Positions 6,820-46,294 are shown, counted from the stretch's first letter. The stretch is 64,000 bases of DNA from Candidatus Pacearchaeota archaeon (GCA_019659125.1 JAIFVX010000001.1:15437-79436), one strand, 5' to 3'. Notes: a model not told the origin generated them from the letters alone. Translations and numbers: made by a program.

Positions 6820-7437
6820 TTATCGTGCAGAATCGGCCTGTTTTTCAGCTTCGTTCTTCTTATTCATGGCATAGCTTTCCATATTTCCCTGTGCAGCAAG
6901 CATGATCTCATTTGCCAGCGTTTCCGCCATATGCTTTTTCTTGCCAAATGATTTAGCGTACGCTCCAATGACCATCCATCGCAATGCCATATCAATCCTT
7001 CGTACAGGGCTCGTATCAACAGCTTGAGGGTATCGTGCACCGGCATGCTCAATGACAGTGATCTCATCTCGAGGAGATGCATGCTCAATGGCGTCAATGA
7101 AGACCTGGATAGGGTTCCTCTTCATTTTTTGCTCTATCATCTCAAGTGCCTTAAGCACGGTGGCCATGTTCTTGTTGTATTTTCCAGAGCTCCAGCTTGT
7201 GATAATCTTATGCTTCTTTCCTACATGTCCTGGAACAGCAAGCCTGTTGGCAAGTCGTTCAATAATGTTCATCTTGGTCTTTGCGAATCGCTCTTGCGCT
7301 CGTCCATGGGTCTTCAAAAGAAGTCGAGGTGTAAGATTGAAATAGGGCTTCAATGCAGGGTCTTTTATCTGCACTTCAACAAGCGAGTACTTGTCGAATG
7401 CCTTGAACTCGTGCTCTTGAGGTGTTGCTGTGGTCAT
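6820..7437 (-). CDS. rps7: 30S ribosomal protein S7 (uS7)
   Basis: 205 aa; archaeal S7/S5e-like sequence (…KSFGKKKHMAETLANEIMLAAQG…); start overlaps the upstream ORF stop (ATGA). Confidence 0.9.
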   Translation of the reverse strand: MTTATPQEHEFKAFDKYSLVEVQIKDPALKPYFNLTPRLLLKTHGRAQERFAKTKMNIIERLANRLAVPGHVGKKHKIITSWSSGKYNKNMATVLKALEMIEQKMKRNPIQVFIDAIEHASPRDEITVIEHAGARYPQAVDTSPVRRIDMALRWMVIGAYAKSFGKKKHMAETLANEIMLAAQGNMESYAMNKKNEAEKQADSAR

Positions 7438-7694
7438 GTTAATGATTCAAGACCTCCCTTTTTTCTGTTTTCAATCTCAGTGTATATTTCTCTTCCTTTT
7501 ACCGTAGCTTTTACATCGTACATTCTAGTCCCTTTTTCTTTTTCATGTACATTTACTAAACCCATTTTTTGAAGCTGAAGTGCAACATCGTAAGAATCTC
7601 TTGTCTTTTCAGAGAGAGTAATACCAAAGTGTTCCGAAGTAGATAGATACAGAATTGTTTCTTGAGGATGCGATAGTCTTATCTCTTCTGCCAT
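7434..7694 (-). CDS. small winged-helix-like protein (86 aa) inserted between rps12 and rps7, translationally coupled on both sides
   Basis: ATG overlaps the rps12 stop, and its TGA overlaps the rps7 ATG; HTH-like segment ITLSEKTRDSYDVALQLQKMGLV followed by a beta-hairpin-like KGTRMYDVKATVKG. Confidence 0.55.
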   Translation of the reverse strand: MAEEIRLSHPQETILYLSTSEHFGITLSEKTRDSYDVALQLQKMGLVNVHEKEKGTRMYDVKATVKGREIYTEIENRKKGGLESLT

Positions 7695-8116
7695 TATCTT
7701 CTACCCTTCTCTATCTTGCCCTTTACCAGTCTTCGGAGAGGCTGATCATTTACTTTGATAACTTGATATCTGATTCCAGGAATATCTCCCTTCGTGCTTC
7801 CCATGGCCCCGCCAATTCGTTCAATGACAACTTCATCGTGTTCATCAATGAATCTTTGTGCTAAGTTTCCAGGGATGAATGCTCCAACTTGGATACCATT
7901 CTTTATCAATTGTACTTTGCAGCATTTTCTCATCGCTGAGTTAGGCTGCTTCGCTTCTTTTTCAAATTTCGAGATGACGATTCCTTTTGCTTGGGATGAT
8001 CGTCCTATAGGGTCTGATTTCACGTTCAATCGAAGTGTCCGTTCTTTATACTGCCTCTGGCTCCATCTAAATTTTCTTCGGTTTTTCATCAATTTTCGAG
8101 CATTCATTAAACCCAT
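7694..8116 (-). CDS. rps12: 30S ribosomal protein S12 (uS12/S23e)
   Basis: 140 aa; conserved …[17 protein letters not shown]…FIPG…[12 protein letters not shown]…[10 protein letters not shown]. Confidence 0.92.
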
Positions 8117-8156
8117 AAAAGGAGGTAAGAAGTATGGTTTTTAAATCTTCTTGATA

Positions 8157-8573
8157 CTAGAGAATTCGTAAGCCCATGCCAAACATTTCCTGGAGAAGCT
8201 TTTTCAGCTCGTCAAATCGTCGTTTGTTTCGTCCAATAAGGGCTGCTTTTGATTGGGTATTGCCAGCATTGATAATAAATTCACCATCCTTCATCTCCAG
8301 TGACTTAAATTTTACGGGAGAAACAACGTCTTCAATAAATCGTGCGGCCTCTGCATGCCCTTCTGCTTCCTGCACAATTCGTATTCTTTTTCCAAGCTTG
8401 TCTTGTAATGCGCGAATGTTTGAGGCATCAGGGCCTATCGCCTTGGACATCATATGTTTTGGCACTGCAAAATAAATAGTGTTGTTGTAAATGAAACAAT
8501 GTCTCGTCTTGACATTTGAAGCTCTGTCTAAGAGGTTTATGTATCGCATAATGTGCATATCTATTACTGACAT
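8157..8573 (-). CDS. nusA: archaeal NusA-like transcription termination factor (KH domains only)
   Basis: 138 aa; KH-type motifs (…IGRNKRRFDELKKL…); conserved position between rpoA and rps12. Confidence 0.75.
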   Translation of the reverse strand: MSVIDMHIMRYINLLDRASNVKTRHCFIYNNTIYFAVPKHMMSKAIGPDASNIRALQDKLGKRIRIVQEAEGHAEAARFIEDVVSPVKFKSLEMKDGEFIINAGNTQSKAALIGRNKRRFDELKKLLQEMFGMGLRIL

Positions 8574-8645
8574 AGTATGAACAGAGAATGAATGTGTTTC
8601 ACCATCGTATAATCTTCACTCTCAGACAGAGTTTATAAATTTATC

Positions 8646-11600
8646 CTAGTCTTTTTCTTCTTTTGAAGGTTTTGTCTTGGTTGCTAAAGGTCCAGTGACT
8701 TTAACCAATAATCCTGGAAGGCCAGTGCCGACGGGAATTGGCTGGTTAAGAAGAATATTCTCAATCACTGAGTTCAGTTCGTCTCGAGCTCCCTGGATAG
8801 TTGCATTGATAAACTGCTTGTCAGGAGTTTCGAATGTCGCACGGGCAAGAATACTTGCCTTGTCTGAGATGATTCCCATTCTCGTGACTCCCTTGACAAC
8901 ACCTGATGAAGTCATTGCGTCAGCAACAAGCTTGAGATGTCTATCATTGATATCTAATCCTTGAGAATCGATAACATGATGGATTTCATTGATGATAGTT
9001 TGGCGAGCAGCTTCTATTCCAAGTACATTTGATACGTCGTGAATGTCATTCGAAGTGATTTTTGTCCTGTCAACTCCCTTAACCTCAAGAATCTCCTTCA
9101 GGTTACTTCCTGCAGTCAAGATGACAAAATCCTTTCCTCTATTGGCTACAACAACCTGTGAAACACCCTTTATTCCAGAGATGATAGTGTCCTTCAATTT
9201 CTCTTTCAACTTGTAGATTGCCTTGAAGTCCATGTCTCCAGCAACAACGGTGATCTTCATGTCATTACCCTTAGTGCTGAATCCTTTTTCATTCAATCGC
9301 TCGATAATTCTTTGTGATCCGACATGCACCGACTTGAGTGCTTTCTGATCAAGGAGCATTTCAATCTTCTTGCTTGCGAAGTCAATCTTTATTTCAGATG
9401 CTATCTCTTTGAGTGTTACTTCTCGTATCTTTTCAGCAATCGTCTTTGCATCCTTATCATTGTTATGTTCCTTGTCAAGGCCTATCTCCATCTGAGGTGT
9501 AGAAGGTTGCTTTCGTGCATCCAAAATTTCAATTAATCGAGGCAAACCAAGTGTAATCTGCATTTCTGCAACTCCTGCATGGTGGAATACGTTAAGAACC
9601 ATTTGCGTCGAAGCTTCTCCAAATGATTGTGCAGTCACTACTCCCTGAGCTTCTCCAGGTGCGACTTTGTCCTGTTTAAGATGAAGGCGAGAGACATCCT
9701 TTCCATCATCTCCAAACATAAACTGAACGATTCGCTCAGATGCATCTCTAACAGTACCATCATATTCAACTTTCAGGTCCTGCAATGCGCTGACGAGTCT
9801 CCTATACAAGTATCCTGATTTTGGAGTTCTTAATGCAGTGTCCATAAGACTGTCTCGTCCAGTGATAGCTCCAAAGAAGAATTCAGTAGGCTTTAGCCCT
9901 CGGAAGAAAGATGACTTGATGAATCCTCGTGATTCAGGGGCAAGGTCTCCACGCTTAAAGAAGGGCAATGTCCTTTCCGTGTATCCAAAGCTGATTCGCT
10001 TGCTTCCTAATGCTTGCTGACCGACGCAGCATGCGATTTGAGTAATATTCAACATACTTCCTGCAGCTCCTGGTGTGATCATCTTGTTCACGTTTCCATC
10101 AACGGGGAAGTTTGCCTTGACAATAGTTCCCACTTCAGTTCTAACCTCGTTCAATACCTGCAATATCTTGATCTCTCGTGTTTCCTCAGCGCTCTTTCCA
10201 GGAAGCAGTGAAAGTGTTCCCTCTTCGTAATGCTTGATTATTTCAGCAGTCTTTCTCTCGGATTCAGCGACGATTTCTGCAGTTAGTTTCTTGACTTTGT
10301 CTGAAACATTGAGATCATGAAGTGAAAGCGTGTATCCTTTTCTTGATAAGTAGATAGTACCTAAAAGGAATGCTTTGTTGATTGCCTCAACAGCAGTATC
10401 ACGGTCGAATTCCTTGTCAATAATCTTCACCATCTCTCCATTTTCAGCTCCAAATGAGTTGCTTCCAGTTATCTCATGAGGAACTTTTATACTTGATCCC
10501 TTAGGAATTATCTGTGCAAAGACTTCAGTTCCGAGAAGTTCTTTCTTTCGTGCAGTATTAATAACATTTGCAGCGAAAAGAAGCTGATCAGCTTCAGCCT
10601 TCATCATGGTAGCCTTTCCAAGAAGATAGTTCCCCGTGACTGCATCCGCAATAGTTCCAACAAGATTCATGTTGTTCTTTGAGGAAATAATATTCTGATT
10701 TACGTCAAGCAATACCTTAGATTCTGCACGTGCCTCTTCAGTCTGAGGACTGTGGATGTTCATTTCATCACCGTCAAAGTCAGCGTTGTAAGGAGCAGCT
10801 GTTGCAGGATTAAGTCTGAATGTTCTTCCAGGAAGAACTCGGACATAGTGGGCCATAAGGCTTTGCTTGTGCAATGAAGGGTGTCGGTTGAATAAAACAA
10901 TGTCTCCATCTCGTAGATGTCTCTCAATCTTATATCCGGGCTGTATTTCAGCGCATAATTCTTCCTTCAGATCAGCAGTAATCCTCTTTCTCTTTCCATC
11001 AGTTCGTATGACATAGTTTGCTCCAGGATATTTCTCTCCCGCATTGATTAATTCTTTCATTACCTCAAGATTTGCAGTCGTTACGCTTTCAGCAACCGTA
11101 ATGATTCGCGCGATTTCAATAGGGATACCAACTTCATTGATGTTGATGTAAGGATCGGGCGATACGACGGTTCTTCCGGAATAGTTGACTCTCTTTCCAG
11201 CAAGGTTATGTCTAATTCTTCCCTCCTTTCCTTTGATTCTCTCAGTAATCGTCTTCAAAGGCTGTCCAGATCTATGTCGTGCAGGAGGGATTCTTGAAAT
11301 ATTATTGTCAAAGAATGTGGTAACGTGGTATTGCAGCAAGTCCCACAGGTCTTCAATAATGACCTCGGGAGCTCCCGCATTGAGGTTTTCCCACAATCTT
11401 TGGTTAGCTCTAATGATATCGGAGAGCTTGTGTGTCAGGTCGTCTTCAGATCTCTCTCCAGTGTCAAGGGTAATCGATGGTCGTACCGTTACGGAAGGAA
11501 CTAAGATGATGGCCAAGACTGCCCACTCCGGTCTGGCAGTTTTAGGATTAATTCCTATCTTCTTCAATTCATCATCCTGGATGCCTACAAGTCTCTCTCG

Positions 11601-15878: not shown

Positions 15879-16730
15879 TTGCAGATAGATGATAGCTTTT
15901 TATTAGAAGAGATAACAGGACAGATAATTAGTTCAGGAGCTGTTGAAATAAGAGATGTTGATTCTGGCCAAAACCCATTCGTCTATAGTTCTGGAAACCG
16001 AGGCCCAGGCTATGTCATGATAAAAGGTCTTGTCGGCCAGCCGAAGACTCTTAATTTTCTGACAAGAAAGTTAGCAGAAAAGATATCCTCACATTATGGC
16101 CCTCACTTTGAATTTGTCGAAGGAAATGCAACAGGAGGCATGGTTCCAGCATGGCAATTCAGATCAGACCTTGAAGATGTGTTAGGATTAGAAAAGGGAA
16201 CAATTCCCTATACTTATTTGCGGGGAACGAGAAAGGAAGGAGGACACGGTGAACTCATAACAGGAAATGCAAATAATCCCCTTATCAAAAAAGGAATGCC
16301 TGCACTGGTTTTTGAAGAATTGGTGAATTATGCGACAACCACTACAAATGCAGCTAAGGAATTCAGAGCGGCAGGCTATCCCGTCTCTCATGGCGCATGT
16401 ATATTGTTTTACGATAACCCTGAAGCCAGGCGGTTGCTTAAGGAAAATGAAGTAACACAATTATATCTTATTACTCTTCCTGAACTCCTAGATGTCGCCG
16501 AGGCAAACAAGCTTCTTTCAAGCACAGCTGTTAATTCCTATCGCGAGTCTTTGAGAGACCCTCTAGGCTGGCAGCTCAGCAGGAATATGGTTATTCCTAA
16601 AGAGTCCGCTAAGAAAGCGCTAGAGCAAGGCATTCACATGCGTGAGTTGCAGGCTGAAGAGGCTCTTAAGCTTGGGGCTCCCGAGGCGTATCTTAAGAAT
16701 GGATTTGTGTACTGGGCTAAGCAAACATGA
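15879..16730 (+). CDS. pyrE: orotate phosphoribosyltransferase-like type I PRTase (283 aa, with C-terminal extension)
   Basis: N-terminal F-x-Y-SSG-x-x-GPGY (OPRT-like) and a PRPP-binding loop LVFEELVNYATTTTNA; stop overlaps the pyrF start (ATGA). Confidence 0.6.
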   Translation: MQIDDSFLLEEITGQIISSGAVEIRDVDSGQNPFVYSSGNRGPGYVMIKGLVGQPKTLNFLTRKLAEKISSHYGPHFEFVEGNATGGMVPAWQFRSDLEDVLGLEKGTIPYTYLRGTRKEGGHGELITGNANNPLIKKGMPALVFEELVNYATTTTNAAKEFRAAGYPVSHGACILFYDNPEARRLLKENEVTQLYLITLPELLDVAEANKLLSSTAVNSYRESLRDPLGWQLSRNMVIPKESAKKALEQGIHMRELQAEEALKLGAPEAYLKNGFVYWAKQT

Positions 16731-17467
16731 GCCAGCCGTTTCTCTATATTGCTCTTGATTATCCGACTCAAGATGAGGTTCTATCTCAGGCAAAAGATTT
16801 CACCCGTGCAGTGAAGGAAGATTACGGATTCAAGGTAAACCTTGACACGATAGCTAATTTTTCTCCCTCTGCTGGAAGCCCGTATGATTTTATGTGGGAG
16901 ATGCTGAGGCTTGAGAAACCCCTCTTTTTTGATTTTAAGATGTGGAATGGGGAGAGAACGATGAGATCAATCATTGAACGCTGCGGTGAGGCTGGAATAG
17001 ATATTGTTAACATCTATGCTCATGCGGGAGAGAAATTTATTAAGAACGTGAAAGAATCACTTGAAAACACACCAACTCTGTTGTTTGCCCTAACGGTTCT
17101 CTCGCATTATAATGATAGTGACACCCGAAGACTCTACAAGCGATCTTTTGGGGATTCAGTGAAAATGTTATCGAGAATTGCCGAGAAAGGAGGGGCTGAC
17201 GGAATTATCCTTCCAGGAACAGAGCTTCACCGTGTGAAAAGAAGTCCTCTACTAAAATTGGCTACCGGGATAAGGCCTACATGGTATAAGAATAAGAAAA
17301 AGAACAATCAGGAACAGATAGTAACTCCTGAGGAAGCTACTGCAGCAGGAGCAGACTTCTACGTCATGGGTTCTCCCATCCTAGATTACGAGACAGAGCA
17401 TGAAAAAATAGAAGCTCTTGAAAGAGTATTATCGGATATTAAGACCGCCGCGTCTCGTCAAGAATAA
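16727..17467 (+). CDS. pyrF: orotidine-5'-phosphate decarboxylase
   Basis: 246 aa; PFLYIALDYP…KVNLD motif typical of OMP decarboxylase; coupled to the upstream PRTase. Confidence 0.7.
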   Translation: MSQPFLYIALDYPTQDEVLSQAKDFTRAVKEDYGFKVNLDTIANFSPSAGSPYDFMWEMLRLEKPLFFDFKMWNGERTMRSIIERCGEAGIDIVNIYAHAGEKFIKNVKESLENTPTLLFALTVLSHYNDSDTRRLYKRSFGDSVKMLSRIAEKGGADGIILPGTELHRVKRSPLLKLATGIRPTWYKNKKKNNQEQIVTPEEATAAGADFYVMGSPILDYETEHEKIEALERVLSDIKTAASRQE

Positions 17468-17774
17468 TACCTTTCCTGAAAGCACCTTTCTCATATCTCT
17501 TTTTCCTTCGTGCGTGATCAAGTTCTCTCATATCGATTCTCTTTGTCCTCACAATGGCGTGGAGGACCTCATAAATATCAGATAGTTCAGATACGGATTC
17601 CTCTTTAATAAATTCATCAACTTCTTCCTGTAGTTTTTCCTTCAATTTCTTCCAATATTCAACAGGATCTGCCCTATGGATAACTGCACTTTTTCCATCC
17701 TTCTCAATAATTTCAGGAACTTTGTCGCGGATGAGTTTATCGTACTTAATTACAAAGGATTTCTCTTTAACCAT
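17439..17774 (-). CDS. MazG/HisE-like all-alpha NTP pyrophosphohydrolase (111 aa)
   Basis: YDKLIRDKVPEII…EE…EL motif pattern of small MazG-like pyrophosphatases. Confidence 0.55.
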   Translation of the reverse strand: MVKEKSFVIKYDKLIRDKVPEIIEKDGKSAVIHRADPVEYWKKLKEKLQEEVDEFIKEESVSELSDIYEVLHAIVRTKRIDMRELDHARRKKRYEKGAFRKGIILDETRRS

Positions 17775-17835: not shown

Positions 17836-18153
17836 CTAAAAACTATCCTTGATGTTTTCAAGAATAGTATCCTTGTCTATAGCCCCTGATACTCGGTTGA
17901 CTTGTTCTCCATCTATGAGGAATAAGGTTGTAGGGATGCTTACAACATCAAATCTCTCTGCCAATCCTTGCTCAGCATCAACATCAACTTTTGCGAAATG
18001 GACACCTTTCGATTCGTGTGCAGCCTCATCAAAATGTGGCTCCATGATCTTGCAAGGGTGGCACCATTCAGCCCAAAAATCTATCACCCACTTTCCTTTT
18101 GATGTATGTTCATCAAAGTTTTTATCAGTCAAAATAGTAATATGATCACCCAT
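17836..18153 (-). CDS. trxA: thioredoxin
   Basis: WCHPCK active site; ~105 aa from the likely start MGDHITIL (track ORF extends to 18195). Confidence 0.85.
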   Translation of the reverse strand: MGDHITILTDKNFDEHTSKGKWVIDFWAEWCHPCKIMEPHFDEAAHESKGVHFAKVDVDAEQGLAERFDVVSIPTTLFLIDGEQVNRVSGAIDKDTILENIKDSF

Positions 18154-18244
18154 TGAACTCCTTACAAGCCATGTGTTAATAAACTTTATGTTCACACCGG
18201 ACGAATATATTTATATTAAAAGCCCCTTTTATCGACGGAGTTGC

Positions 18245-19185: not shown

Positions 19186-21054
19186 CTAGTGCTTGTAAAG
19201 CATTGAAAGATGAGGGATCATGATGTTACTCCAAGTTTCATATTTTTTCTGATGTAATGGATCATCTTCAATTTCTGAAATTTTCATCAGTCTACCTGAT
19301 TCCAATGCAAGGTCTTTACGTTTTATTGCACCCTCAGTATGAGCAGTATAGATAAGTCCAAAATGTACTCGGTCAACAGCAGTGTTACGTGCGAGCAGAG
19401 TACCCACTAACTTAGGTTCGGAGAGAGGACCATCTATTTCCACCTCCTCATCAAGTTCGCGCATCATACTTGAACGAATATAGGGGTGTTTGTCAGTCTT
19501 ATTCACATGGCCTCCGACACCAATGGAATGTTTGCCAAATAACCGCGAATCACCATAGTCTTTGATATTCTTTGCCCGCACATAAGAGAATACACTTTCG
19601 TCTGGCCCAAAAAGAAGAACATACGGAATAGGTTGAAGAAGACTTTCATCATCTTCGCAATCATACCGTGATTGCCAGAATGATTCGTTGTTAAGCATAT
19701 TCAGCAGTCTTTCTTGAGCACGACTATCAATAGGTTCAAAACCTTCAGAGCCTTCGTTCCTTCTGAATTTCCTTAGCTTATCAAGATCCTCGACAAGAAC
19801 GATCCTGTCCAACTTCCTGTAATTCTTAGCCGCAGCTGTGAAGTCAAATTCCTTGAATTGTTTGGCGGTTTTTGGTCCTATCTGTCCCTGGTAGTTGGAG
19901 CCGATTTCACCCCCATAGACTTTGTCGGGAGTCTCATTGGTTCTGTAGAACTTGATGCTCGTCAATGGCTTGCCATCCCGTAATCGCATATTAGTAACTT
20001 CATCAGATCGTATCTCAAAAACCAAGTCTCCTCTAAATCCTGGATCAATGAATCCTGCCAGATCAAGAGGACCCATAATTCCTACATTCGAGAAGCTTTC
20101 TACCTCGGCACTCAAGTGTGCAGGTACCCGAAGTACTCCTTGCGAGGCGAACAATGCATGATCACCATTCCTCATGACAAAGGGAGTGTCTGGCTTTGCA
20201 ACTAGAGGTTCAAAATAATCTTCTGCATTGTAATGTTTTATCTTTTTTAAATCGATGGGGATTGGATTATTCCGAGTTCTAAGGCCAACAACACCCTCAG
20301 TTGCCTCTCCGTGAAGGTCAAGATTTACTCGCAAACCTCCATCAGCAAGAAGAGGACAGCTCTCAGGCGCGGTGAACTGTTTATCTGCATTTCTATAATT
20401 AATAAACGGGTCTTTTTTGAATTCACTGATAAGTTCACCCGTACTTAATTGAGAATCATATCCCTGAAAGAATCGTAATTGATTGAAGCTAAGGCCAGGA
20501 TACACAATAGCATTGAAAGAGAGAGGTTGTAAAAGAAGCCATAGTCTTAAGGCAGTGTTTGAATTCGGATGAGCATGCGCTTCATCCATCGTAGGATTGT
20601 AATCGGTGAACATTCGAGCATTGAAAAAGAGCCTTCCGCTGGTACTTTTGGGTGAGGATTTCATGACCTCTCCCTGATGAAGAATTACTTTTTCCTCCAA
20701 AGGCAAAAGATAGGTATATCTATTTTTTATCTCATATCCATTGGTAATGTCAAATTTCTGTCGTTGTCTCTTTGGGATGCGCAAAAGAGTTCTATAGATT
20801 TCTTCAGTATCTGGACTGAGTAAACCCTGGGTTTCAGTGTCGAGTACATAGATCTCATTACCAACAATAGGATCTATTGAGGCTGGCTGGATTCTTCCCT
20901 CCAATCCCTCATCTTTAAACCATCCTTTGCGCGGACCTTCGTCAACACGACCAAGGTTTGTTCCAACATTGAGAATCTCTCCATTGAGAATTTTTGATCG
21001 AATCTGCTGTGAAACTAGACTATATCCTCGATCTTCATCCATTGTATACAGCAT
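19186..21054 (-). CDS. long dCTP deaminase/dUTPase-superfamily protein fused to a C-terminal Nudix-like domain (622 aa)
   Basis: N-terminal ~430 aa: LVSQQIRSKILNGEI…RIQPASIDP… and GFIDPGFRGDLVFEI (dCTP deaminase/dUTPase motifs, tandem-barrel long form). C-terminal ~185 aa (…QPIPYVLLFG…GVGGHVNKTD…MMRELDEEV…VHFGLIYTAHTEG…) is clearly homologous to the adjacent ORF 21093. Confidence 0.65.
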   Translation of the reverse strand: MLYTMDEDRGYSLVSQQIRSKILNGEILNVGTNLGRVDEGPRKGWFKDEGLEGRIQPASIDPIVGNEIYVLDTETQGLLSPDTEEIYRTLLRIPKRQRQKFDITNGYEIKNRYTYLLPLEEKVILHQGEVMKSSPKSTSGRLFFNARMFTDYNPTMDEAHAHPNSNTALRLWLLLQPLSFNAIVYPGLSFNQLRFFQGYDSQLSTGELISEFKKDPFINYRNADKQFTAPESCPLLADGGLRVNLDLHGEATEGVVGLRTRNNPIPIDLKKIKHYNAEDYFEPLVAKPDTPFVMRNGDHALFASQGVLRVPAHLSAEVESFSNVGIMGPLDLAGFIDPGFRGDLVFEIRSDEVTNMRLRDGKPLTSIKFYRTNETPDKVYGGEIGSNYQGQIGPKTAKQFKEFDFTAAAKNYRKLDRIVLVEDLDKLRKFRRNEGSEGFEPIDSRAQERLLNMLNNESFWQSRYDCEDDESLLQPIPYVLLFGPDESVFSYVRAKNIKDYGDSRLFGKHSIGVGGHVNKTDKHPYIRSSMMRELDEEVEIDGPLSEPKLVGTLLARNTAVDRVHFGLIYTAHTEGAIKRKDLALESGRLMKISEIEDDPLHQKKYETWSNIMIPHLSMLYKH

Positions 21055-21092
21055 GCTCTAGGTATTTTAAATATGATTATACTTGAATATAG

Positions 21093-21758
21093 ATGAATCA
21101 AACTGAAAGGATTTTTATAGAGGAGAGACAAAAAGAGAGTATGGTGAGAGAGATTCTTGTTGTAAAAAAAGAAACCTTATTTGGAGAAGAGAGTTTCCAA
21201 GGCTTTATCCCTGATTCACAGAGGAATTTCATTGATACTATCCACAACTCATTTGAGTACAAAGAGAGGGATTCTGTAGAGGAAGATACTTCCTTCAGGC
21301 AACCAATTCCCTATGTTTTCATTATCAATAAGAATGATAAGAAAGTGTTTGCTTACCGTAGAGCATCCAAGGGATATAGTGAAAAAAGGCTGAGAAATAA
21401 CTGGTCGTGTGGCTTGGGAGGCCATATCGATAAGAGTGATTCTGAAAACCCCGTCATGACTGCCATGATGCGTGAGCTTGATGAGGAAGTTGTTTCCTCG
21501 CATGCCTTAACACCTACAATCATTGGCTATCTGAATGACGAGACGAATGACGTAGGAAAAGTTCATTTCGGAGTCATAGCTATTGCAGAAACTGAAGGAA
21601 CCGTTGAAAAAGGAAGCGATGAGATGGCTGAAGGGAGATTCATTTCTATTGAAGAGATGGAATCACTACTTTCTGATCCCTCAAGTGAAGTTGAGAACTG
21701 GACGAAGATTGCCTGGCCCTATGTGAAAGAATATATGTTAAATCTTTCTATCGTGTAG
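21093..21758 (+). CDS. Nudix-like hydrolase, stand-alone paralog of the C-terminal domain of the dcd-like fusion
   Basis: 221 aa; …QPIPYVFIINKNDKKVFAYRRAS…GLGGHIDKSDSENPVMTAMMRELDEEV… (Nudix-box-like G…E…RELxEE with one extra spacer residue); ~40% identical over ~150 aa to residues ~440-600 of the 622-aa protein. Confidence 0.6.
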   Translation: MNQTERIFIEERQKESMVREILVVKKETLFGEESFQGFIPDSQRNFIDTIHNSFEYKERDSVEEDTSFRQPIPYVFIINKNDKKVFAYRRASKGYSEKRLRNNWSCGLGGHIDKSDSENPVMTAMMRELDEEVVSSHALTPTIIGYLNDETNDVGKVHFGVIAIAETEGTVEKGSDEMAEGRFISIEEMESLLSDPSSEVENWTKIAWPYVKEYMLNLSIV

Positions 21759-22169
21759 AACAATCGCTGAATGTCGCGGGATTTTTTCGTCCTGTGCATA
21801 CGCGGCGTGATACCGTACATATTGACTATCAAGTTTCTTTGCTACATGTCCTCGTGCAATAAGCGGAATTCTTGTCCCATTATCGCGGGCAATGCTGATA
21901 GAAGTATAATCGCTCTCAGGCAAATAATCATGAATATGCAATGTCCCTTGATAGCTTACATGATCAAGGCCATCTTGTCGGCAGGCGATTTCACGTAGCC
22001 TAAAAAACTTCTTTATTTTTGTCTCAGGTTTGAAGAGATGCACCTGTGACTTAATATATTTGTTTTTCTCATAATTAAGAGTGCGTTCTAGTTTGTTAGA
22101 AAGATTATCACGATAAAATTTGCGTCCTCGTACAGGTACCTTTGTATGAGCAGGTGTAAGCCATGTCAT
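21738..22169 (-). CDS. hypothetical protein (143 aa)
   Basis: ORF convergent with 21093 (21-nt overlap); His/Arg-rich; no assignable motif. Confidence 0.4.
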   Translation of the reverse strand: MTWLTPAHTKVPVRGRKFYRDNLSNKLERTLNYEKNKYIKSQVHLFKPETKIKKFFRLREIACRQDGLDHVSYQGTLHIHDYLPESDYTSISIARDNGTRIPLIARGHVAKKLDSQYVRYHAAYAQDEKIPRHSAIVLHDRKI

Positions 22170-22425: not shown

Positions 22426-25284
22426 TTATTCGCCGCAGCCAGATCTCGTTGATTGCTTGCACGAAGTACAATAGATTGAGCAGTTCCCTGTTCTCTTTGC
22501 AGGTCCTCCACAATGTGGACAGGTAAGACCTTCATTACCAAATGCTTCGATAGATGTCTGCTTTTCCTCTTCAAGTGCAGGCTCAAGCGGTTTGATTTCC
22601 AGATCTATCTTACCAGTACTCTGGCCAAAGGTTGCTAACATAAACTGAGAGACATAGTCAACAATCGACGAGGCCGTCCTGATAGGAGTTACATCAGCAT
22701 CAAGCTGTCCTCCACCCGTATTCTTTACAAACCCTGAAGGCTCGAACTTCTGATGCCTGAACTTTCCAAAGAGATCGCTGACAGAAACCCCATATTGAAG
22801 GTTTAATGAGATCGAGGTTGCCCATGCATCCATTAATCCTCGAATGGTTGATCCTTGCTTGTGCATGCTTACGAAAATCTCACCAGGCTTTCCATCGTCA
22901 TATAATCCTACAGTCAAATATCCTTCATGACCTGCAATCTCGAATTTATGAGTGATCGATTTTCTTGTCTGAGGCATCTTCTTTCTCTGGACAACAATCA
23001 CTGACTTGACTTTCTGCTTCACCATCTCTCCATCAGTCTTCTGCGTGTTGAGAGGCTGGCTGCGCTTGCTGTTCTCTCGGTAGATTGCCACAGCCTTCAA
23101 TCCTTGCTCCCAGGAGAAGATATACGCCTCTGCAATCTCATCAACGGTTGAGTTCTCAGGCATGTTAATGGTCTTGCTAATGGCGCCAGAAATGAATGGT
23201 TGGCTTACTCCCATCATCTTGATATGTCCAAAATGATGAATTGATCGCTTCCCTTGTGCTGGCTTGAATGCACAGTCAAAGATAGGAAGATGTTCATCTA
23301 AAAGCTCAGGAGCTCCCTCGATCATGTCGGTCTTGTCAATGTACTCTATGATCTTTTCAATCTGCTGAGAAGTATATCCAAGATTCTGCAACGCAAGCGC
23401 GACACTCTTGTTCACGATCTTAAGCATTCCTCCTCCTGCAAGTACCTTATACTTCACTAATGCAATGTCGGGCTCTATACCAGTAGTATCGCAATCCATC
23501 ATGAATGCAATAGTTCCTGTAGGAGCTAATACAGTCACTTGAGCATTTCGATAGCCATGCTGCTCTCCGAGTTCAAGAGCTTCAGTCCAACAATCCCATG
23601 CCTCATTGACTAAATATCGCAAAGGTGCAGGTGTTTTCTCGACATCAATCTTCTTGACAGCTTCTCGATGCATTTTGATAACATTAATCATAGACTCTTT
23701 ATTCTCTTGATAGCGAGGGAATGCCCCTACAAGCCCTGCAAGCTGTGCTGAGGCCTTGTATGCCTCTCCACACATGATTGCAGTGATTGCCGCCGCTACG
23801 GCCCTGCCTTCATCAGAATCATAGGGCAAGCCAACGCTCATAAGCAATGCACCAAGGTTTGCATATCCTAATCCAAGTGTCCTGAAATCATGCGATCGGC
23901 GTGCAATTTTCTGAGTAGGGTAACTTGCTCCATCAACAAGGATATCCATCGAAATAATGAATTTTCTGACAACCTGCTTGAATCTCTCTGCATCAAACAA
24001 TCCCTCATCCGTTCTGAACTTCATAAGGTTGATAGAAGCAAGATTGCAAGCAGTATCATCGAGGAACATATATTCAGAACAGGGATTAGATGCATTGATT
24101 CTACCACTAGCTTTGCACGTGTGCCATGTGTTGATGACTGTGTCAAACTGCATTCCAGGATCTCCACATAACCATGTTCCCTCGGCAATCTTTCTAAGCA
24201 TTTCACGTGCTTTAAGTGTCTCACAAGCTTGCTTGGTAATGACGAATCGTGTCTGCCACTCTCCATTAGCTTTTACAGCTTTCATGAACTCATCGGAAGC
24301 CCTGACTGACATGTTTGAATTCTGGAAGAAGACGCTAGTGTATGCCTCTCCATTCATTCCTCCTGAATAGCCTGCCTCAATCAAAGCCCAGGCTTTTTTC
24401 TCTTCCTTCTGCTTTGCCTCAATGAATTCCATAATATCAGGATGATCTACATTTAATATTTCCATTTTAGCAGCTCTTCGTGTCTTGCCTCCCGACTTAA
24501 TGACGCCTGCATACGCATCATAGCCTTTCATGAATGCAACAGGACCTGATGAGGGACCGCCTCCCGTTAACTTTTCCTTAGAGCTACGAAGGGTAGATCT
24601 GTTTGTTCCTGTTCCCGATCCTCCCTTGAAGAGCATTGCTTCAGCAACCTGGACCTCAAGGATTGATTCCATATTGTCTTCCATACCTTGGATGAAGCAG
24701 GCAGAGCATTGAGGCCGGTCATCGGCTCGTTGTGTAGGGATGATGCTGTCACTAGCGCTGTCCCACTTATAATGCGCAACACCTCCAGCATTAGGGTCAT
24801 ACTCTTGATTGACCCCAGCATTAAACCATACAGGGGAATTAAAGACACATAACTGGTTGAGGCATATGGCTGCGACCTCATCACGTAAGGTAGCGCTCTG
24901 AGCTTCATCGAAATATCCTTGTTTGATTGCCTGCCGTGCAATAAACCGGGCAACTCGCCCAACAAGCTGCTCAACACTTCCTTCCCTCTCCCCCTTTGTC
25001 TGATTGCCCCAGAAATATTTGCTTGCGACAACCTTGATTGCCAAAGGCGACCAGAATTCAGGTCTTCTTACATTTGGCTGGACGAAAATAAGCTTTCCGC
25101 GGTCATCAGTAACCTTTACCTCTTCAGAAATCCATCGGATGGGATTGCCATAGATATCAAATTCAAATGGACTTTTTCCAGGAGCGCTGAAGAAATGATC
25201 GATGAGCGGAGAGCTTCCCGCAGCAGAAAGTCGTGTTCCCATGGTCCTCTCACCATCATCATATTTCTTGAACTTTGTATCCAT
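22426..25284 (-). CDS. nrdJ: ribonucleoside-triphosphate/diphosphate reductase, class II (adenosylcobalamin-dependent, monomeric type)
   Basis: 952 aa; active-site region ASNPCSEYMFLDDTACNL; allosteric/ATP-cone-less N-terminus; C-terminal Cys-rich Zn-ribbon tail CPHCGG…CTSCK…GCGE. Confidence 0.9.
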   Translation of the reverse strand: MDTKFKKYDDGERTMGTRLSAAGSSPLIDHFFSAPGKSPFEFDIYGNPIRWISEEVKVTDDRGKLIFVQPNVRRPEFWSPLAIKVVASKYFWGNQTKGEREGSVEQLVGRVARFIARQAIKQGYFDEAQSATLRDEVAAICLNQLCVFNSPVWFNAGVNQEYDPNAGGVAHYKWDSASDSIIPTQRADDRPQCSACFIQGMEDNMESILEVQVAEAMLFKGGSGTGTNRSTLRSSKEKLTGGGPSSGPVAFMKGYDAYAGVIKSGGKTRRAAKMEILNVDHPDIMEFIEAKQKEEKKAWALIEAGYSGGMNGEAYTSVFFQNSNMSVRASDEFMKAVKANGEWQTRFVITKQACETLKAREMLRKIAEGTWLCGDPGMQFDTVINTWHTCKASGRINASNPCSEYMFLDDTACNLASINLMKFRTDEGLFDAERFKQVVRKFIISMDILVDGASYPTQKIARRSHDFRTLGLGYANLGALLMSVGLPYDSDEGRAVAAAITAIMCGEAYKASAQLAGLVGAFPRYQENKESMINVIKMHREAVKKIDVEKTPAPLRYLVNEAWDCWTEALELGEQHGYRNAQVTVLAPTGTIAFMMDCDTTGIEPDIALVKYKVLAGGGMLKIVNKSVALALQNLGYTSQQIEKIIEYIDKTDMIEGAPELLDEHLPIFDCAFKPAQGKRSIHHFGHIKMMGVSQPFISGAISKTINMPENSTVDEIAEAYIFSWEQGLKAVAIYRENSKRSQPLNTQKTDGEMVKQKVKSVIVVQRKKMPQTRKSITHKFEIAGHEGYLTVGLYDDGKPGEIFVSMHKQGSTIRGLMDAWATSISLNLQYGVSVSDLFGKFRHQKFEPSGFVKNTGGGQLDADVTPIRTASSIVDYVSQFMLATFGQSTGKIDLEIKPLEPALEEEKQTSIEAFGNEGLTCPHCGGPAKRTGNCSIYCTSCKQSTRSGCGE

Positions 25285-25724
25285 TAGCTCTTGAGCTCCT
25301 TAATTTCTTTATTAAAATCAGCAACATCTCTAAAATCTTTGTAAACAGAAGCAAATCGGATGTAGGCAACTTTGTCAATCTTCTTCAACTCTCGAGAGAC
25401 AAGCTCTCCTATGAGGTTGGCATTCACTTCTTTGCCTTTTCTCCGTAGTTTTTCCTCTATAGTGTGTATCATGATGTCAATTGTTTCAGCACTTACAGGA
25501 CGCTTTTCACATGCCCTGAGGATTCCTTTCCGCACCTTTTCACTATCGAAATCCTCGCGCCTCCCATCTTTCTTTATTACTCTCAGCTCAACCTTCTCGA
25601 TTCCTTCATGAGTGTTGAAACGCTGGTGGCATTTCAGGCATTCACGCCTCCTTTTTATCATGCCCTCTGCATCACGCTTGTCTATCACCTTGGTTTCTTG
25701 GTTTTGGCAGTAGGGGCATAACAT
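25284..25724 (-). CDS. nrdR: NrdR transcriptional repressor (Zn ribbon plus ATP-cone)
   Basis: MLCPYCQNQETKVIDKRD…RRRECLKCHQRF…EKRPVS…KVAYIRFASVYKDF: near-canonical NrdR; stop overlaps the nrdJ start; track ORF begins 4 codons earlier (25736). Confidence 0.9.
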   Translation of the reverse strand: MLCPYCQNQETKVIDKRDAEGMIKRRRECLKCHQRFNTHEGIEKVELRVIKKDGRREDFDSEKVRKGILRACEKRPVSAETIDIMIHTIEEKLRRKGKEVNANLIGELVSRELKKIDKVAYIRFASVYKDFRDVADFNKEIKELKS

Positions 25725-25762
25725 TGTGCACCCCAATATCTTGTGTTTTTTTGCAATCTCAG

Positions 25763-25776
25763 CACAAGTTATTGTG
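25763..25776 (-). promoter_or_regulatory. NrdR-box-like palindrome CACAAGTTATTGTG (CAC-N8-GTG) ~40 nt upstream of nrdR
   Basis: Perfect 5+5 inverted repeat with an AT-rich centre in the nrdR-nrdJ leader; matches the NrdR box architecture. Confidence 0.5.
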
Positions 25777-25874
25777 TTTTATAAGATCTTGGAGTCACAT
25801 TCATATTTAAAGGTTTCTACGAATTTTTTTCTTCCGTCGATAAAAAAGAAAATAGAAATCGTTATGTTTCTGGA

Positions 25875-26177: not shown

Positions 26178-26385
26178 GCGACATCAGAAGGTAAAGATCC
26201 TCCACGAACCTGATCCTGAATATATAGAGTATTATTCCGATACAGAAATTCCTATAAAGAAAGGCATGATTGGAAAGATCAATATTCTTTTACCCAATGG
26301 AAGATATCATGTGGAGATAGACAAAGATGGCGAAGTTATCGCCTATGCTCCTTTCAACGAAGAAGATCTAGAGGCTATCGATTAA
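26161..26385 (+). CDS. hypothetical protein (~74 aa)
   Basis: ORF 26137..26385, likely starting at MHTKFKRHQK; no motif. Confidence 0.35.
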   Translation: MHTKFKRHQKVKILHEPDPEYIEYYSDTEIPIKKGMIGKINILLPNGRYHVEIDKDGEVIAYAPFNEEDLEAID

Positions 26386-26831
26386 TTCTTATTATACTGG
26401 GATATGTAATATTTGTACATTGCACCCATGTTCTCAGGAATTGTTTTTGTAATCTTATATTCGGAAAAGTGATCAGCATTAAGCTTTATATCTTGCTTAT
26501 CTATCTTTATCAAGAAACCCGTTGAAATATCTTGTCTTTCCTTTTCAGTCTTAAATTTACCTACATATTGGCCTAAGAAGGTTCTTTTCTCAGGATCTAT
26601 CTTCAATCCAAGCTCATTCAAAGCAATTCTCTTAAGAGTGTCTTCTATCTCCTCTCCTTTGTACATCCTCAATCCTGGAAGAGCCCATTGATTCTCATAG
26701 GGAGGTATTTTCCTCTTTACTATGATAAATCCTTCACTTCCATATTCAATAAGCAAGTCAAATGTAGGAATCACTGCCCATTCTAAAATCTGCTCAAATA
26801 TCCCTCGTGGTGCGAACTTAATCTCACCCAT
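26382..26831 (-). CDS. Nudix-family-like hydrolase (149 aa, degenerate Nudix box)
   Basis: …QWALPGLRMYKGEEIEDTLKRIALNELGL… resembles the GX5EX7REUXEEXGU box with substitutions. Confidence 0.45.
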   Translation of the reverse strand: MGEIKFAPRGIFEQILEWAVIPTFDLLIEYGSEGFIIVKRKIPPYENQWALPGLRMYKGEEIEDTLKRIALNELGLKIDPEKRTFLGQYVGKFKTEKERQDISTGFLIKIDKQDIKLNADHFSEYKITKTIPENMGAMYKYYISQYNKN

Positions 26832-29283: not shown

Positions 29284-30081
29284 ATGGATGTCGATGCATT
29301 CAAGAAAACAGTCTACTCGTTTTATGAGAAGAACAAAAGGGATTTGCCCTGGAGAAAAGACCTATCACCATATAGTATTCTCGTCTCTGAAATCATGCTA
29401 CAACAAACCCAGGTTTCTAGGGTCATTAAGAAGTACCACGAATTTATGAAGCGCTTCCCAGATTTTCAATCGCTTGCATCTGCTTCAGCCTCGGAAGTGA
29501 TCAAGGAATGGTCTGGTCTCGGATATAATAGGCGAGCTCTTGCACTCAAAACGATAGCCGAGCAGGTAATAAAGGATCATCATGGAAAATTACCATCATC
29601 TCCCGAGGTCCTTGAAACGTTTCCAGGTATCGGTAAGGCAACTGCAGCCTCAATTGTCGCATTCGCATTTAACCTTCCCGTAGTTTTCATAGAGACAAAT
29701 GTAAGAAGTGTATTCATTCATCATTTCTTTAAGGGCCAGCAGGAAGTTTCTGACAAAGATATTCTTCCTCTAGTAAAAGTGACCTTAGATGAGCAAAACC
29801 CGCGTGAGTGGTACTATGCCCTCATGGATCTTGGCAGTGTCTTGAAGAAGGAGTATAATGCAAGCAGACAAAGTACACATTATACGAAGCAATCACCATT
29901 TCTAACATCAAATAGAAGAATTAGGGGAATGATTATCAAGCAGCTTGTCAAAGGCCCCAACGAAGAGGAAAAATTGAAAGATATATTGAATATAGATGAT
30001 GATGTGCTGCAGACTAACCTAAAGCAACTTGAAAAAGAGGGATTCATTATCAAGAAAGGGAAGAGTATACGATTAAGATAA
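29284..30081 (+). CDS. HhH-GPD DNA glycosylase, MutY/Nth-like but lacking the [4Fe-4S] cysteine cluster
   Basis: 265 aa; LPWR…PYSILVSEIMLQQTQV…GLGYNRRA…LETFPGIGKATAASIVAFAF (HhH-GPD); no CX6CX2CX5C motif downstream; C-terminal ~70 aa wHTH-like tail. Confidence 0.75.
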   Translation: MDVDAFKKTVYSFYEKNKRDLPWRKDLSPYSILVSEIMLQQTQVSRVIKKYHEFMKRFPDFQSLASASASEVIKEWSGLGYNRRALALKTIAEQVIKDHHGKLPSSPEVLETFPGIGKATAASIVAFAFNLPVVFIETNVRSVFIHHFFKGQQEVSDKDILPLVKVTLDEQNPREWYYALMDLGSVLKKEYNASRQSTHYTKQSPFLTSNRRIRGMIIKQLVKGPNEEEKLKDILNIDDDVLQTNLKQLEKEGFIIKKGKSIRLR

Positions 30082-38797: not shown

Positions 38798-39361
38798 ATG
38801 ATGCTTCAGGAAGAATTCTTCAATAGAAGTACCATCCAGGTGGCGAAAGACATGCTGGGATGTTACATTGTATCAGAGTCCAAGGAAGGAAGGACGGTGG
38901 GAAAGATAGTGGAAACGGAAGCGTATCTCTCAGATGATCCGGGCTCGCACACCTTCAAGGGAAAAACAAAAAGGAATGAAGTGATGTTCGGACCTCCAGG
39001 AAGAGCTTATGTCTATTTCATTTATGGAGCACATCATTGCATCAATATAGTTACTCAAAAAGCAGGGATGGGTGAGGCAGTGTTGATTCGTGCACTCGAA
39101 CCGATCTCAGGGATCGACATCATGAAAAAGAGGAGAGGAAAAGAGGATATTTATGAGTTGTGCAGTGGCCCTGGCAAGCTTGTCGTCGCTCTCGGTATAG
39201 ATAAAACATTTAACGGCCTTGAGTTGAATAAGCGGATAAAAATGCTTGAGCAACAGGAAAAGCCGACTATTGTTGCAACAACCCGTGTTGGCCTTTCAAA
39301 TGGAAAAGACCTTCCCTATCGCTTCTACATCCGAGATAACCCATTTATCTCAAGAAAATAA
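38798..39361 (+). CDS. mpg: DNA-3-methyladenine glycosylase (Mpg/AAG family)
   Basis: 187 aa; IVETEAYLSDDPGSHTFKGKTKRNEVMFGPPGRAYVYFIYGAHHCINIV signature. Confidence 0.88.
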   Translation: MMLQEEFFNRSTIQVAKDMLGCYIVSESKEGRTVGKIVETEAYLSDDPGSHTFKGKTKRNEVMFGPPGRAYVYFIYGAHHCINIVTQKAGMGEAVLIRALEPISGIDIMKKRRGKEDIYELCSGPGKLVVALGIDKTFNGLELNKRIKMLEQQEKPTIVATTRVGLSNGKDLPYRFYIRDNPFISRK

Positions 39362-45154: not shown

Positions 45155-46294
45155 ATGAAAGAAGAGTTCAGTGTCACTCCATGGGATATTAAGGGAGATA
45201 TTGATTACGACAAACTCATAAAGAAGTTTGGTGTTGAGCCTCTAACTCCATCATTATTAAAAAGGATTGAGAAGACTGTCGGGGAATCCCATTTCATGCT
45301 ACGAAGAGGTATTTTCTTTGCTCATAGGGATATGGAATGGATTCTTGATGAGTACGGAAAAGTAAAGGGCCCTCAACAGGAAAAATTCTTCCTTTACACA
45401 GGAAGAGCTCCCTCAGGTCCAGTTCATATTGGTCATCTTGTTCCATGGGTTTTTACAAAATGGCTGCAAGACAAATTTAATGCTGAACTCTGGTTCCAGT
45501 TTCCCGATGAGGAAAAAGTGCTCATGAAGCAGGATATTACATTCGAAGATACGGCAAAGTACCTGAAAGAGAATATGCTTGATGTGATCGCACTAGGCTT
45601 TAACCCGAAGAAGACCCATTTTCTTATTGACACAAAGCATGCCAATCTGATGTACAAGGAAGCATGCAAGGTCGCTAAGAAAATAACGTTTTCGATGGTG
45701 AAAGCATCATTTGGTCTTAATGAGCAATCTAACATCGGCTCCATATTCTACACTGCTATGCAGGCAGTCCCAGCATTTTTGCCTTCCATTCTATCAAAAC
45801 GGGAAACTCCCTGCCTTATTCCTCACGCCATAGATCAAGATCCTCATTTCAGGCTGACGAGAGATATCTTACCAAAGTTAGGACATTACAAACCAGCATC
45901 AATACAATGCTCCTTCCTTCCCCCATTACAAGGTCGTGGAAAGATGAGCTCTTCCGAAGGTACTGCAATTTACACTACAGACTCCCCTGAAGACGTTGCG
46001 AAGAAGATAAACAAATACGCATTCTCAGGAGGAAAAGATACTCTGGAAGAGCATAGGAAAAAAGGCGGGAACCCTGACATCGATATCTCATTCCAGTATC
46101 TAAGATATTTGTTCGAGCCTGATGACAAGAAGCTTGAGAAAATATACAAAGATTATAAGTCGGGAAAGCTCCTTTCAGGAGATCTAAAGAAAATGACCAT
46201 TGAGAAGATCAATGCCTTCCTCAAAGATCATCAGGAAAAGAGAAAGCACGCAGAACAATTCCTCAACGCATTTATTCTCGAGACGAACGACTAG
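45155..46294 (+). CDS. trpS: tryptophanyl-tRNA synthetase (archaeal/eukaryotic type)
   Basis: 379 aa; class I HIGH (TGRAPSGPVHIGHL) and KMSSS (GKMSSSEG) motifs; length and motifs fit TrpRS rather than TyrRS. Confidence 0.85.
   Translation: MKEEFSVTPWDIKGDIDYDKLIKKFGVEPLTPSLLKRIEKTVGESHFMLRRGIFFAHRDMEWILDEYGKVKGPQQEKFFLYTGRAPSGPVHIGHLVPWVFTKWLQDKFNAELWFQFPDEEKVLMKQDITFEDTAKYLKENMLDVIALGFNPKKTHFLIDTKHANLMYKEACKVAKKITFSMVKASFGLNEQSNIGSIFYTAMQAVPAFLPSILSKRETPCLIPHAIDQDPHFRLTRDILPKLGHYKPASIQCSFLPPLQGRGKMSSSEGTAIYTTDSPEDVAKKINKYAFSGGKDTLEEHRKKGGNPDIDISFQYLRYLFEPDDKKLEKIYKDYKSGKLLSGDLKKMTIEKINAFLKDHQEKRKHAEQFLNAFILETND

Follow-up and report, generated by a model that had tools for sequence, protein, structure and literature searches.

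Both the supply of deoxyuridine monophosphate (dUMP) for thymidylate synthesis and the removal of deoxyuridine triphosphate (dUTP), which keeps uracil out of DNA, are essential. One published account names two sources of dUMP, namely dUTP through Dut and deoxycytidine triphosphate (dCTP) through Dcd:dut (PMC5519681). In the bifunctional DCD-DUT, a homotrimer of subunits of ~190 amino acids (aa), a single active site carries out both steps. The long dCTP deaminases (long DCDs, exemplified by Protein Data Bank (PDB) entry 2R9Q and family PRK07559) have a tandem architecture; we found no description of their activity or of canonical-family biochemistry in the literature searched. Among Nudix proteins, E. 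coli NudI hydrolyses dUTP and dCTP (PMC5389931). For B. subtilis YmaB, a Nudix protein of the nrd operon, a preliminary, unspecific pyrophosphohydrolase activity on deoxynucleoside triphosphates (dNTPs) has been reported (PMC5960316), and the function of T. maritima TM1382 (PDB 3E57) is entered as 'Undetermined' in a survey of the Nudix clan (PMC5389931). Here we describe a gene of a DPANN-type archaeon, Candidatus Pacearchaeota, in which a long dCTP deaminase is fused to a COG4112/TM1382-type Nudix module. The gene lies in a DNA stretch of 64,000 nucleotides (nt) (GCA_019659125.1, JAIFVX010000001.1:15437-79436), called the window below, next to a stand-alone paralogue of the module. No description of such a fusion, or of a link between COG4112 and dcd, dut or thyX, was found in the literature searched.

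We propose, with a probability of about 0.62, that the fusion works in housekeeping metabolism, as an enzyme of two modules that supplies the precursor of thymidylate; it would take dCTP via dUTP to dUMP in one polypeptide. The tandem dUTPase-fold part would bind dCTP at a composite site, one per chain, with Ser137 and Arg141 supplied by the first half and Asp337, Glu347 and a YQGQ lid by the second; dCTP would be deaminated to dUTP at this site. The Nudix module, via its metal-binding RE-x-x-EE helix, would hydrolyse dUTP to dUMP and pyrophosphate (PPi), as a non-homologous stand-in for the trimeric dUTPase (Dut). In this way dUTP would not accumulate, and dUMP would be passed to ThyX. The predicted net reaction is dCTP -> dUMP + NH3 + PPi. 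The domain identities, the conserved catalytic residues, the existence and spread of the fusion and the patterns of gene context are established below; from comparative genomics we infer both enzyme activities, the Nudix substrate and any channelling.

The same predicted net reaction in one polypeptide, with free dUTP avoided, makes the fusion resemble DCD-DUT, and its deaminase part shares with that enzyme the dUTPase fold and the motifs GFIDPGF-x-G-x4-E and YQGQ. The two differ in that the fusion has a tandem deaminase of 400 aa and leaves the second step, on our reading, to an unrelated Nudix module attached to it. With the long DCDs it has in common the tandem architecture, the fold, a Ser/Arg motif in the first half and a Glu motif in the second; however, it is only ~22% identical to them, has lost the first-half Glu and carries the additional C-terminal Nudix module. 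Both module copies in the window match TM1382 over the whole length, including its N-terminal helical extension, but TM1382 stands alone while the module of the fusion does not. NudI (YfaO) is comparable as a Nudix enzyme for which hydrolysis of dUTP and dCTP has been shown experimentally (PMC5389931), and the Salmonella YfaO structure 3oga ranks 45th among the fold matches. NudI differs in being small and canonical, without the N-terminal extension, outside COG4112 and neither fused to nor clustered with dcd, and its activity was scored as that of a stepwise triphosphatase (PMC5389931). Finally, a dCTP deaminase domain is shared with the dCTPase defence proteins of PADLOC, whereas the fusion has neither a PADLOC match nor their kinase-like N-terminal domain, and its surroundings are those of a housekeeping gene. 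The fusion is rather probably a modular analogue of DCD-DUT, with the corollary that the COG4112/TM1382 family would include dUTP pyrophosphatases that replace Dut.

The gene and the features of its deaminase part are as follows (a minus marks the reverse strand).

19186..21054 (-): fusion gene, open reading frame (ORF) of 622 aa, long dCTP deaminase plus COG4112/TM1382-type Nudix module
20461..20901 (-): N-terminal deaminase half, aa 52-198, from Pfam DCD_N and the 2r9q alignment
20632-20655 (-): Ser/Arg motif S134-P-K-S137-T-S-G-R141, first deaminase half
20524-20544 (-): LWLLLQP, with Leu at the position of the catalytic Glu, first deaminase half
19855..20355 (-): C-terminal deaminase half, aa 234-400, from Pfam DCD_C and the 2qxx alignment
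20014-20058 (-): A333-GFIDPGFRGDLVF-E347, second deaminase half
19876-19893 (-): C-terminal lid Y388-QGQIG, second deaminase half

A preliminary description, made from the DNA alone, had reported two divergent ORFs of 622 and 221 aa here, and both were recovered together with the motifs that it quoted for the fusion (SQQIRSKILNGEI at aa 15-27, IQPASID at 55-61, AGFIDPGFRGDLVFE at 333-347 and RELDEEV at 532-538). The NCBI model of the identical protein (P0001, 100% identity) has 618 aa and starts at M5 (nt 21042). The description's assignment of the N-terminal part to the long-form dCTP deaminases also stands. Pfam DCD_N (PF06559; aa 52-198, 54 bits, cutoff 21.4) and DCD_C (PF22569; aa 234-400, 95.9 bits, cutoff 22) both score above their gathering thresholds, in N-to-C order, and among solved structures the A. 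tumefaciens long dCTP deaminase comes closest (2R9Q, sequence E 1.6e-25). The score against NCBIfam PRK07559, 146 bits, lies below the equivalog cutoff of 283, and we therefore regard the deaminase part as a divergent subfamily and not as an equivalog. An AlphaFold2 model of the fusion was built from 82 homologues (predicted local distance difference test 93.6, predicted template modelling (TM) score 0.87). In a Foldseek comparison it matched 2R9Q with E 7e-27 and a TM score of 0.90 relative to the target, and 3E57, a 'putative Nudix hydrolase', with a TM score of ~0.8; short dCTP deaminases and other Nudix enzymes ranked after these two.

The deaminase residues that are invariant in the 82 aligned fusions are S134, S137, R141, G334, D337, F340, E347, Y388, Q391 and G393. 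In the first half, Leu replaces the Glu of 2R9Q (LWLLLQP versus LYLEISP), while the canonical long DCDs retain Glu in both halves (LWLEI or LWIEV in the first). In the second half it is the Ser/Arg motif that has degenerated (SFSNVGIMG, Arg lost), and AGFIDPGF-x-G-x4-E and the YQGQ lid are kept. The catalytic feature set is complete, with one composite set per chain (Ser-x3-Arg, G-x-ID-x-G-x-x-G-x4-Glu and the YQGQ lid), from which we infer one composite active site per chain, built from both halves.

For the Nudix module and its paralogue, the features are these.

19189..19842 (-): fused Nudix module, aa 405-622, including the TM1382-type N-terminal helical extension
19441-19521 (-): atypical Nudix box G512-x-GGH...R532-E-L-D-E-E537 of the fused module
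19621-19635 (-): family motif QPIPY of the fused module
19357-19368 (-): family motif VHFG of the fused module
19231-19239 (-): family motif ETW of the fused module
21093..21758 (+): stand-alone COG4112/TM1382-type Nudix paralogue, ORF of 221 aa
21411-21491 (+): Nudix box of the stand-alone paralogue

The domain shared by the two ORFs had been called Nudix-like, and the fold found here is indeed that of Nudix proteins. Both copies match TM1382 full length in phmmer searches (aa 412-611 of the fusion, E 2.4e-16; stand-alone copy, 4.5e-21), and the fold matches include further Nudix structures (2fkb, NUDT12, MutT2, 3oga and MutT). Pfam NUDIX (PF00293) is found in the stand-alone copy (33.4 bits, cutoff 21.1) and in a homologous fusion (P0427, 27.6 bits). 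An identity of ~40% had been given for the shared domain; the paralogy stands, far beyond chance, but BLASTP puts the figure at 35% over 186 aa (E 3e-36). In the 82 fusions, G514, G515, H516, R532, H564, E606 and W608 are invariant, and D521, E533, E536 and E537 are conserved at 90% or more. A second alignment combined 52 sequences of the Nudix family, namely archaeal fused, archaeal stand-alone and bacterial members. Here the three glutamates E533, E536 and E537 never vary, and conservation of R532 is 90% or more; the family invariants Q-x-IPY, G-x-GGH, RE-x-x-EE, VHFG and E-W are common to both copies in the window. The invariance of S134, S137, R141, D337, E347, Y388 and Q391 in the fusions, and of the three glutamates across fused, free and bacterial members, shows that catalytic residues are under selection.

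Most members of this family are not fused. A profile search with the module returned 7,645 cluster representatives, mostly stand-alone proteins of ~200 aa, and the source databases label family members COG4112. B. subtilis YmaB presumably belongs to COG4112 as well. A further architecture was seen in a protein of 591 aa (P0413), in which the COG4112 Nudix module lies N-terminal to DUF1015, a domain of unknown function.

A database search with the fusion gave 1184 matches. The best 120 of them are all 562-765 aa long and cover 91-100% of the query, and they stem from many independent assemblies (NCBI, JGI, ENA and Logan); the fusion is therefore no product of a frameshift or of misassembly joining two genes, a possibility that the preliminary description had raised. 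Some members are named 'dCTP deaminase / predicted NUDIX family phosphoesterase' by JGI. Of 55 loci found among the GTDB species representatives, about 50 have the fusion in full, and a few are split by frameshifts or contig ends. Almost every carrier bears a Woese-, Pace- or Nanoarchaeota label; the few others are given as Methanosarcinales, Methanobacteriota, Euryarchaeota, 'bacterium' or simply 'archaeon'. The viral contigs of IMG/VR yielded no full fusion. The recurrent neighbours, counted within +/-10 kb of the fusion in ~50 GTDB loci, many of which are truncated, are listed below.

nrdR and/or class II ribonucleotide reductase (RNR): 12 of ~50 loci, divergently adjacent in L025, L030 and L046
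thioredoxin: 10 of ~50 loci
thyX: 5 of ~50 loci, directly adjacent in L024 and L038
tmk: 3 of ~50 loci, adjacent in L040
ndk: 2 of ~50 loci, immediately downstream in L043 and L048

In two proteins (P0007 and P0013) NDK is itself fused on, in the order DCD-Nudix-NDK. The closest relative (68% identity, L001/L054) shares the gene order of the window, nrdR-RNR ... fusion-PCMT-x-thioredoxin ... RNA polymerase. This context points to housekeeping dNTP and thymidylate metabolism.

A second fusion of the two kinds of domain has the reverse order. In a protein of 430 aa (P0403), the COG4112 Nudix module is N-terminal and is followed by a short, single-domain Dcd. Its gene belongs to a conserved cluster, topA-[Nudix::dcd]-tmk-thyX, that we found on the P0403 contig and in 17 further metagenomic loci (L063-L081 in all). 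Nudix::dcd is a single uninterrupted ORF in 16 loci and in the end-truncated L077, with linkers of varying length and intact motifs. From its context (TopA, DprA), the lineage looks bacterial. Three differences between the lineages indicate an independent fusion event: the domains are in opposite order, the deaminases differ in architecture, and the fused Nudix modules belong to different clades.

This cluster also bears on what the module may do. We searched the window and the +/-4-10 kb flanking every gene for Dut, using a dUTPase probe whose matches were verified by Pfam PF00692, and detected the conventional enzyme in only seven fetched loci. Within the bacterial cluster, dcd is unfused in L079 and L081 alone, and in both of them dut lies directly upstream of it (topA-dut-dcd-tmk-thyX in L081; the same order in L079, where topA was not detected). 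The position of dut in these two is thus the slot that the Nudix module fills in the 16 fused loci, and no dut was found in the fetched flanks of any fused locus of the cluster. Since Dcd, ThyX and Tmk are all encoded in the cluster, the conversion of dUTP to dUMP is the sole step from dCTP to deoxythymidine diphosphate without another gene. An unfused, canonical long DCD in L036 also has dut immediately upstream, which suggests that long DCDs rely on another enzyme for dUTP hydrolysis. The replacement in the dut slot is the strongest evidence for the module being a putative dUTP hydrolase. Linkage to thyX, tmk, ndk and RNR, the second Nudix-Dcd fusion and the dut replacement together strongly favour the coupling of dCTP to dUTP to dUMP that the preliminary description had envisaged. 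In viral contigs of IMG/VR, a COG4112-like gene lies immediately upstream of an RNR gene in four cases (L092, L093, L111 and L113) and within a few kb of tmk in two (L083 and L105).

A broader claim has about even chances of being right: TM1382/COG4112 may be an unrecognised, non-homologous class of dUTP pyrophosphatases that replaces Dut in many ultra-small DPANN archaea and in a bacterial lineage and has been fused to a dCTP deaminase at least twice, as a modular equivalent of DCD-DUT feeding ThyX. If the module is the dUTP hydrolase, a large Nudix family would gain a function, including the structural-genomics target TM1382 (PDB 3E57), to which none has been assigned since 2008. A likely gap in the pyrimidine deoxynucleotide metabolism of the genome-reduced DPANN archaea and of a bacterial lineage would be filled, and current annotations, in which the protein figures simply as a dCTP deaminase, would have to be corrected. 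The two fusions would also be a clean case of non-orthologous displacement of Dut combined with convergent fusion, which would have occurred twice, with opposite domain order and with different deaminases.

In the DPANN loci as well as in the bacterial-type cluster, we observed a ThyX of ~550-620 aa with two Thy1 Pfam stretches (L002 8709-10373(-), L064 6362-8107(+), L038 6036-7715(-) and others). This tandem duplication of ThyX parallels that of the deaminase.

Several observations weigh against the proposed two-module enzyme. For both forms of the fusion, the two activities are predictions from comparative genomics. The absence of Dut applies to no more than the fetched flanks of +/-4-10 kb and the 64-kb window. 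In L035 and L036, an intact fusion coexists with an adjacent pair of dut and long DCD, which looks redundant if both do one and the same job, and in L060-L062 stand-alone COG4112-like genes adjoin a conventional dut, so that members of the family are not universally replacements for Dut. The L060-L062 proteins form a divergent branch, in which AGH replaces the invariant GGH. The second deaminase half is closer to two bifunctional DCD-DUT enzymes, 2qxx of M. tuberculosis (E 8.8e-12) and 4xjc of B. halodurans (2.8e-5), than to the monofunctional E. coli Dcd (0.17), and the deaminase part might already hydrolyse dUTP. The Nudix module, for its part, has an atypical box. The stretch from the first conserved Gly to the Arg (G512 to R532 in the fused copy) exceeds the canonical length, and the fused copy lacks a Glu at the canonical position eight residues before the Arg. 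Where the canonical box, G-x5-E-x7-R-E-U-x-E-E-x-G-U, ends with a further Gly, the fused copy has Glu and the free one Val. When scanned alone, the C-terminal 225 aa of the fusion give no match to Pfam NUDIX; their fold was established via 3E57.

These points bear first on an alternative that we consider unlikely, namely that the deaminase part alone acts as a bifunctional dCTP deaminase-dUTPase and releases dUMP, and that the Nudix module does another job in the pathway, for example the sanitation or trimming of dNTP pools (dCTP, dTTP, dATP or damaged dNTPs). The closeness of the second half to 2qxx and 4xjc, among the short forms, would fit such an enzyme, as would the COG4112-like genes beside dut in L060-L062 and the fusions beside dut in L035 and L036. 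YmaB, with its preliminary and unspecific dNTP pyrophosphohydrolase activity (PMC5960316), could serve as a model for the Nudix job. On the other hand, dut directly precedes both the unfused dcd of the bacterial cluster and the long DCD of L036, which suggests that these deaminases are monofunctional, and it is exactly the dut slot that the Nudix module occupies in the 16 loci. As to the composition of L035, the genes directly upstream of the fusion are a DUF1653::dUTPase (7224-7877(+)) and a gene for a 561-aa protein with a kinase-like part (AAA_18) fused to a long DCD (7959-9641(+)). The kinase part matches the dCTPase defence model of PADLOC (E 1.3e-17), and the pair may be an accessory, defence-type dCTP deaminase with its own dUTPase.

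Far less probable is a non-catalytic or regulatory role of the Nudix module, for instance as a sensor of dTTP or dUTP that would tune the deaminase allosterically. Feedback by dTTP on dCTP deaminases is known (PDB 2qxx and 4a6a are dTTP complexes), the Nudix clan has some non-enzymatic members (PMC5389931), and the atypical box and the missing Pfam match of the fused module would both agree with a loss of catalysis. However, regulatory decay should have relaxed precisely those residues, E533, E536, E537 and R532, that are kept in fused and free members alike, and in the bacterial cluster the module replaces a catalytic enzyme, Dut.

The reading of the locus as an anti-phage system, which would deplete nucleotides by means of a dCTP-destroying deaminase and a hydrolase and which the preliminary description had offered as an option, can be set aside as very improbable: dCTP deaminase defence does exist as a PADLOC model class, and the kinase::long-DCD gene beside the fusion in L035 matches it, but the fusion, the paralogue and three flanking ORFs, as well as P0403, have no PADLOC match at E <= 1, the fusion is kept in ~50 species representatives, the closest relative shares its gene order beside nrdR/RNR, PCMT, thioredoxin and RNA polymerase genes, thyX, tmk and ndk accompany it elsewhere, no full copy was found in IMG/VR, and the GC content is flat across the region (about 0.41-0.43), with no sign of an island.

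Having weighed these alternatives against the two-module enzyme for dUMP synthesis, we turn to the stand-alone paralogue. Its NCBI model (P0121) has 205 aa and begins at M17 (nt 21141), which is the probable true start. Orthologues of ~205 aa with 45-62% identity occur in other DPANN-type assemblies, and the paralogue and the fused modules fall in separate clades, that of the paralogue being old. The divergent arrangement recurs in only one of ~50 other loci (L012), and no stand-alone Nudix gene lies beside the fusion in the closest relative (L001/L054). In other genomes the orthologues lie elsewhere, in one case beside thyX-tmk-thioredoxin (L002/L003). A recent tandem duplication was considered as the origin of the paralogue and rejected on the grounds of the 35% identity, the separate clades and the location of the orthologues elsewhere in other genomes. 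The idea that the adjacent copy forms one unit with the fusion is not supported, given how rarely the two are adjacent, the lack of this arrangement in the closest relative and the separate clade of the paralogue; the paralogue is not an obligate partner of the fusion. Most likely it would act in the same pathway as a free pyrophosphatase for dUTP or, more broadly, for pyrimidine dNTPs.

The surroundings of the two genes in the window include the following features.

21055..21140: divergent intergenic region, short and AT-rich
22426..25284 (-): class II RNR, ORF, assigned from Pfam domains of syntenic genes
25284..25736 (-): nrdR, ORF, assigned from Pfam domains of syntenic genes, in an operon with class II RNR
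17836..18195 (-): thioredoxin, from Pfam Thioredoxin in the syntenic gene, a recurrent neighbour of the fusion

The end of the class II RNR gene is 1.37 kb from the start of the fusion, in agreement with the earlier estimate of ~1.3 kb for the distance to the RNR/nrdR operon. Neither Dut nor ThyX, Tmk or NDK was found in the window. Within the divergent intergenic region, TATTTTAAATA could be a TATA element for either direction, judging by its letters.

Directly upstream of nrdR there are two NrdR-box-like palindromes, at 25731-25746 and 25762-25777, with a spacing of 31 bp; the window contains four matches to the NrdR box where 0.65 are expected. The same boxes were observed upstream of nrdR in nine other loci (L025, L026, L030, L035, L041, L045, L046, L051 and L054). 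They are of the bacterial type and often form a tandem pair 31 bp apart, and one of them, in L046, is the perfect consensus ACACAATATATTGTGT. This implies a functional NrdR-RNR regulon in archaea. We also considered the fusion as a member of this regulon with boxes of its own. The scan of the window gave no NrdR box in 21055-21140, and elsewhere boxes come close to the fusion in L030 and L046 alone, through a shared intergenic region; there is thus no evidence for such membership.

An ORF of 143 aa (21738-22169(-)) shares 21 nt with the 3' end of the stand-alone Nudix gene. It has no match in Pfam, NCBIfam or PADLOC; in L001, the position directly upstream of the fusion is taken by a weak homologue (29% identity over 78 aa, E 5e-10). 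On the other side of the fusion, at a distance of 1.7 kb, we found pyrF (16727..17467). In a Nitrospiraceae genome (L007 6001-7357), a COG4112 gene is located directly upstream of pyrF, which encodes orotidine monophosphate decarboxylase. The ORF of 283 aa upstream of pyrF in the window (15879-16730(+)) has no Pfam match, and L001 has a phosphoribosyltransferase (PF00156) at a similar position. An ORF of 111 aa (17439..17774(-)) had appeared MazG-like by eye, an assignment that was dropped as neither Pfam nor PDB gave a significant match.

A third Nudix protein, canonical and small (149 aa, Pfam NUDIX 34.5 bits), is encoded at 26382-26831(-), ~650 bp beyond the start of nrdR. We asked if it is kin to the small Nudix protein beside the stand-alone COG4112 orthologues of L002, and the two are unrelated. 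Further genes of the window encode a HhH-GPD base-excision glycosylase (29284-30081(+)), a methylpurine-DNA glycosylase (38798-39361(+)) and a protein with a phage-lysozyme domain (46272-47000(-)).

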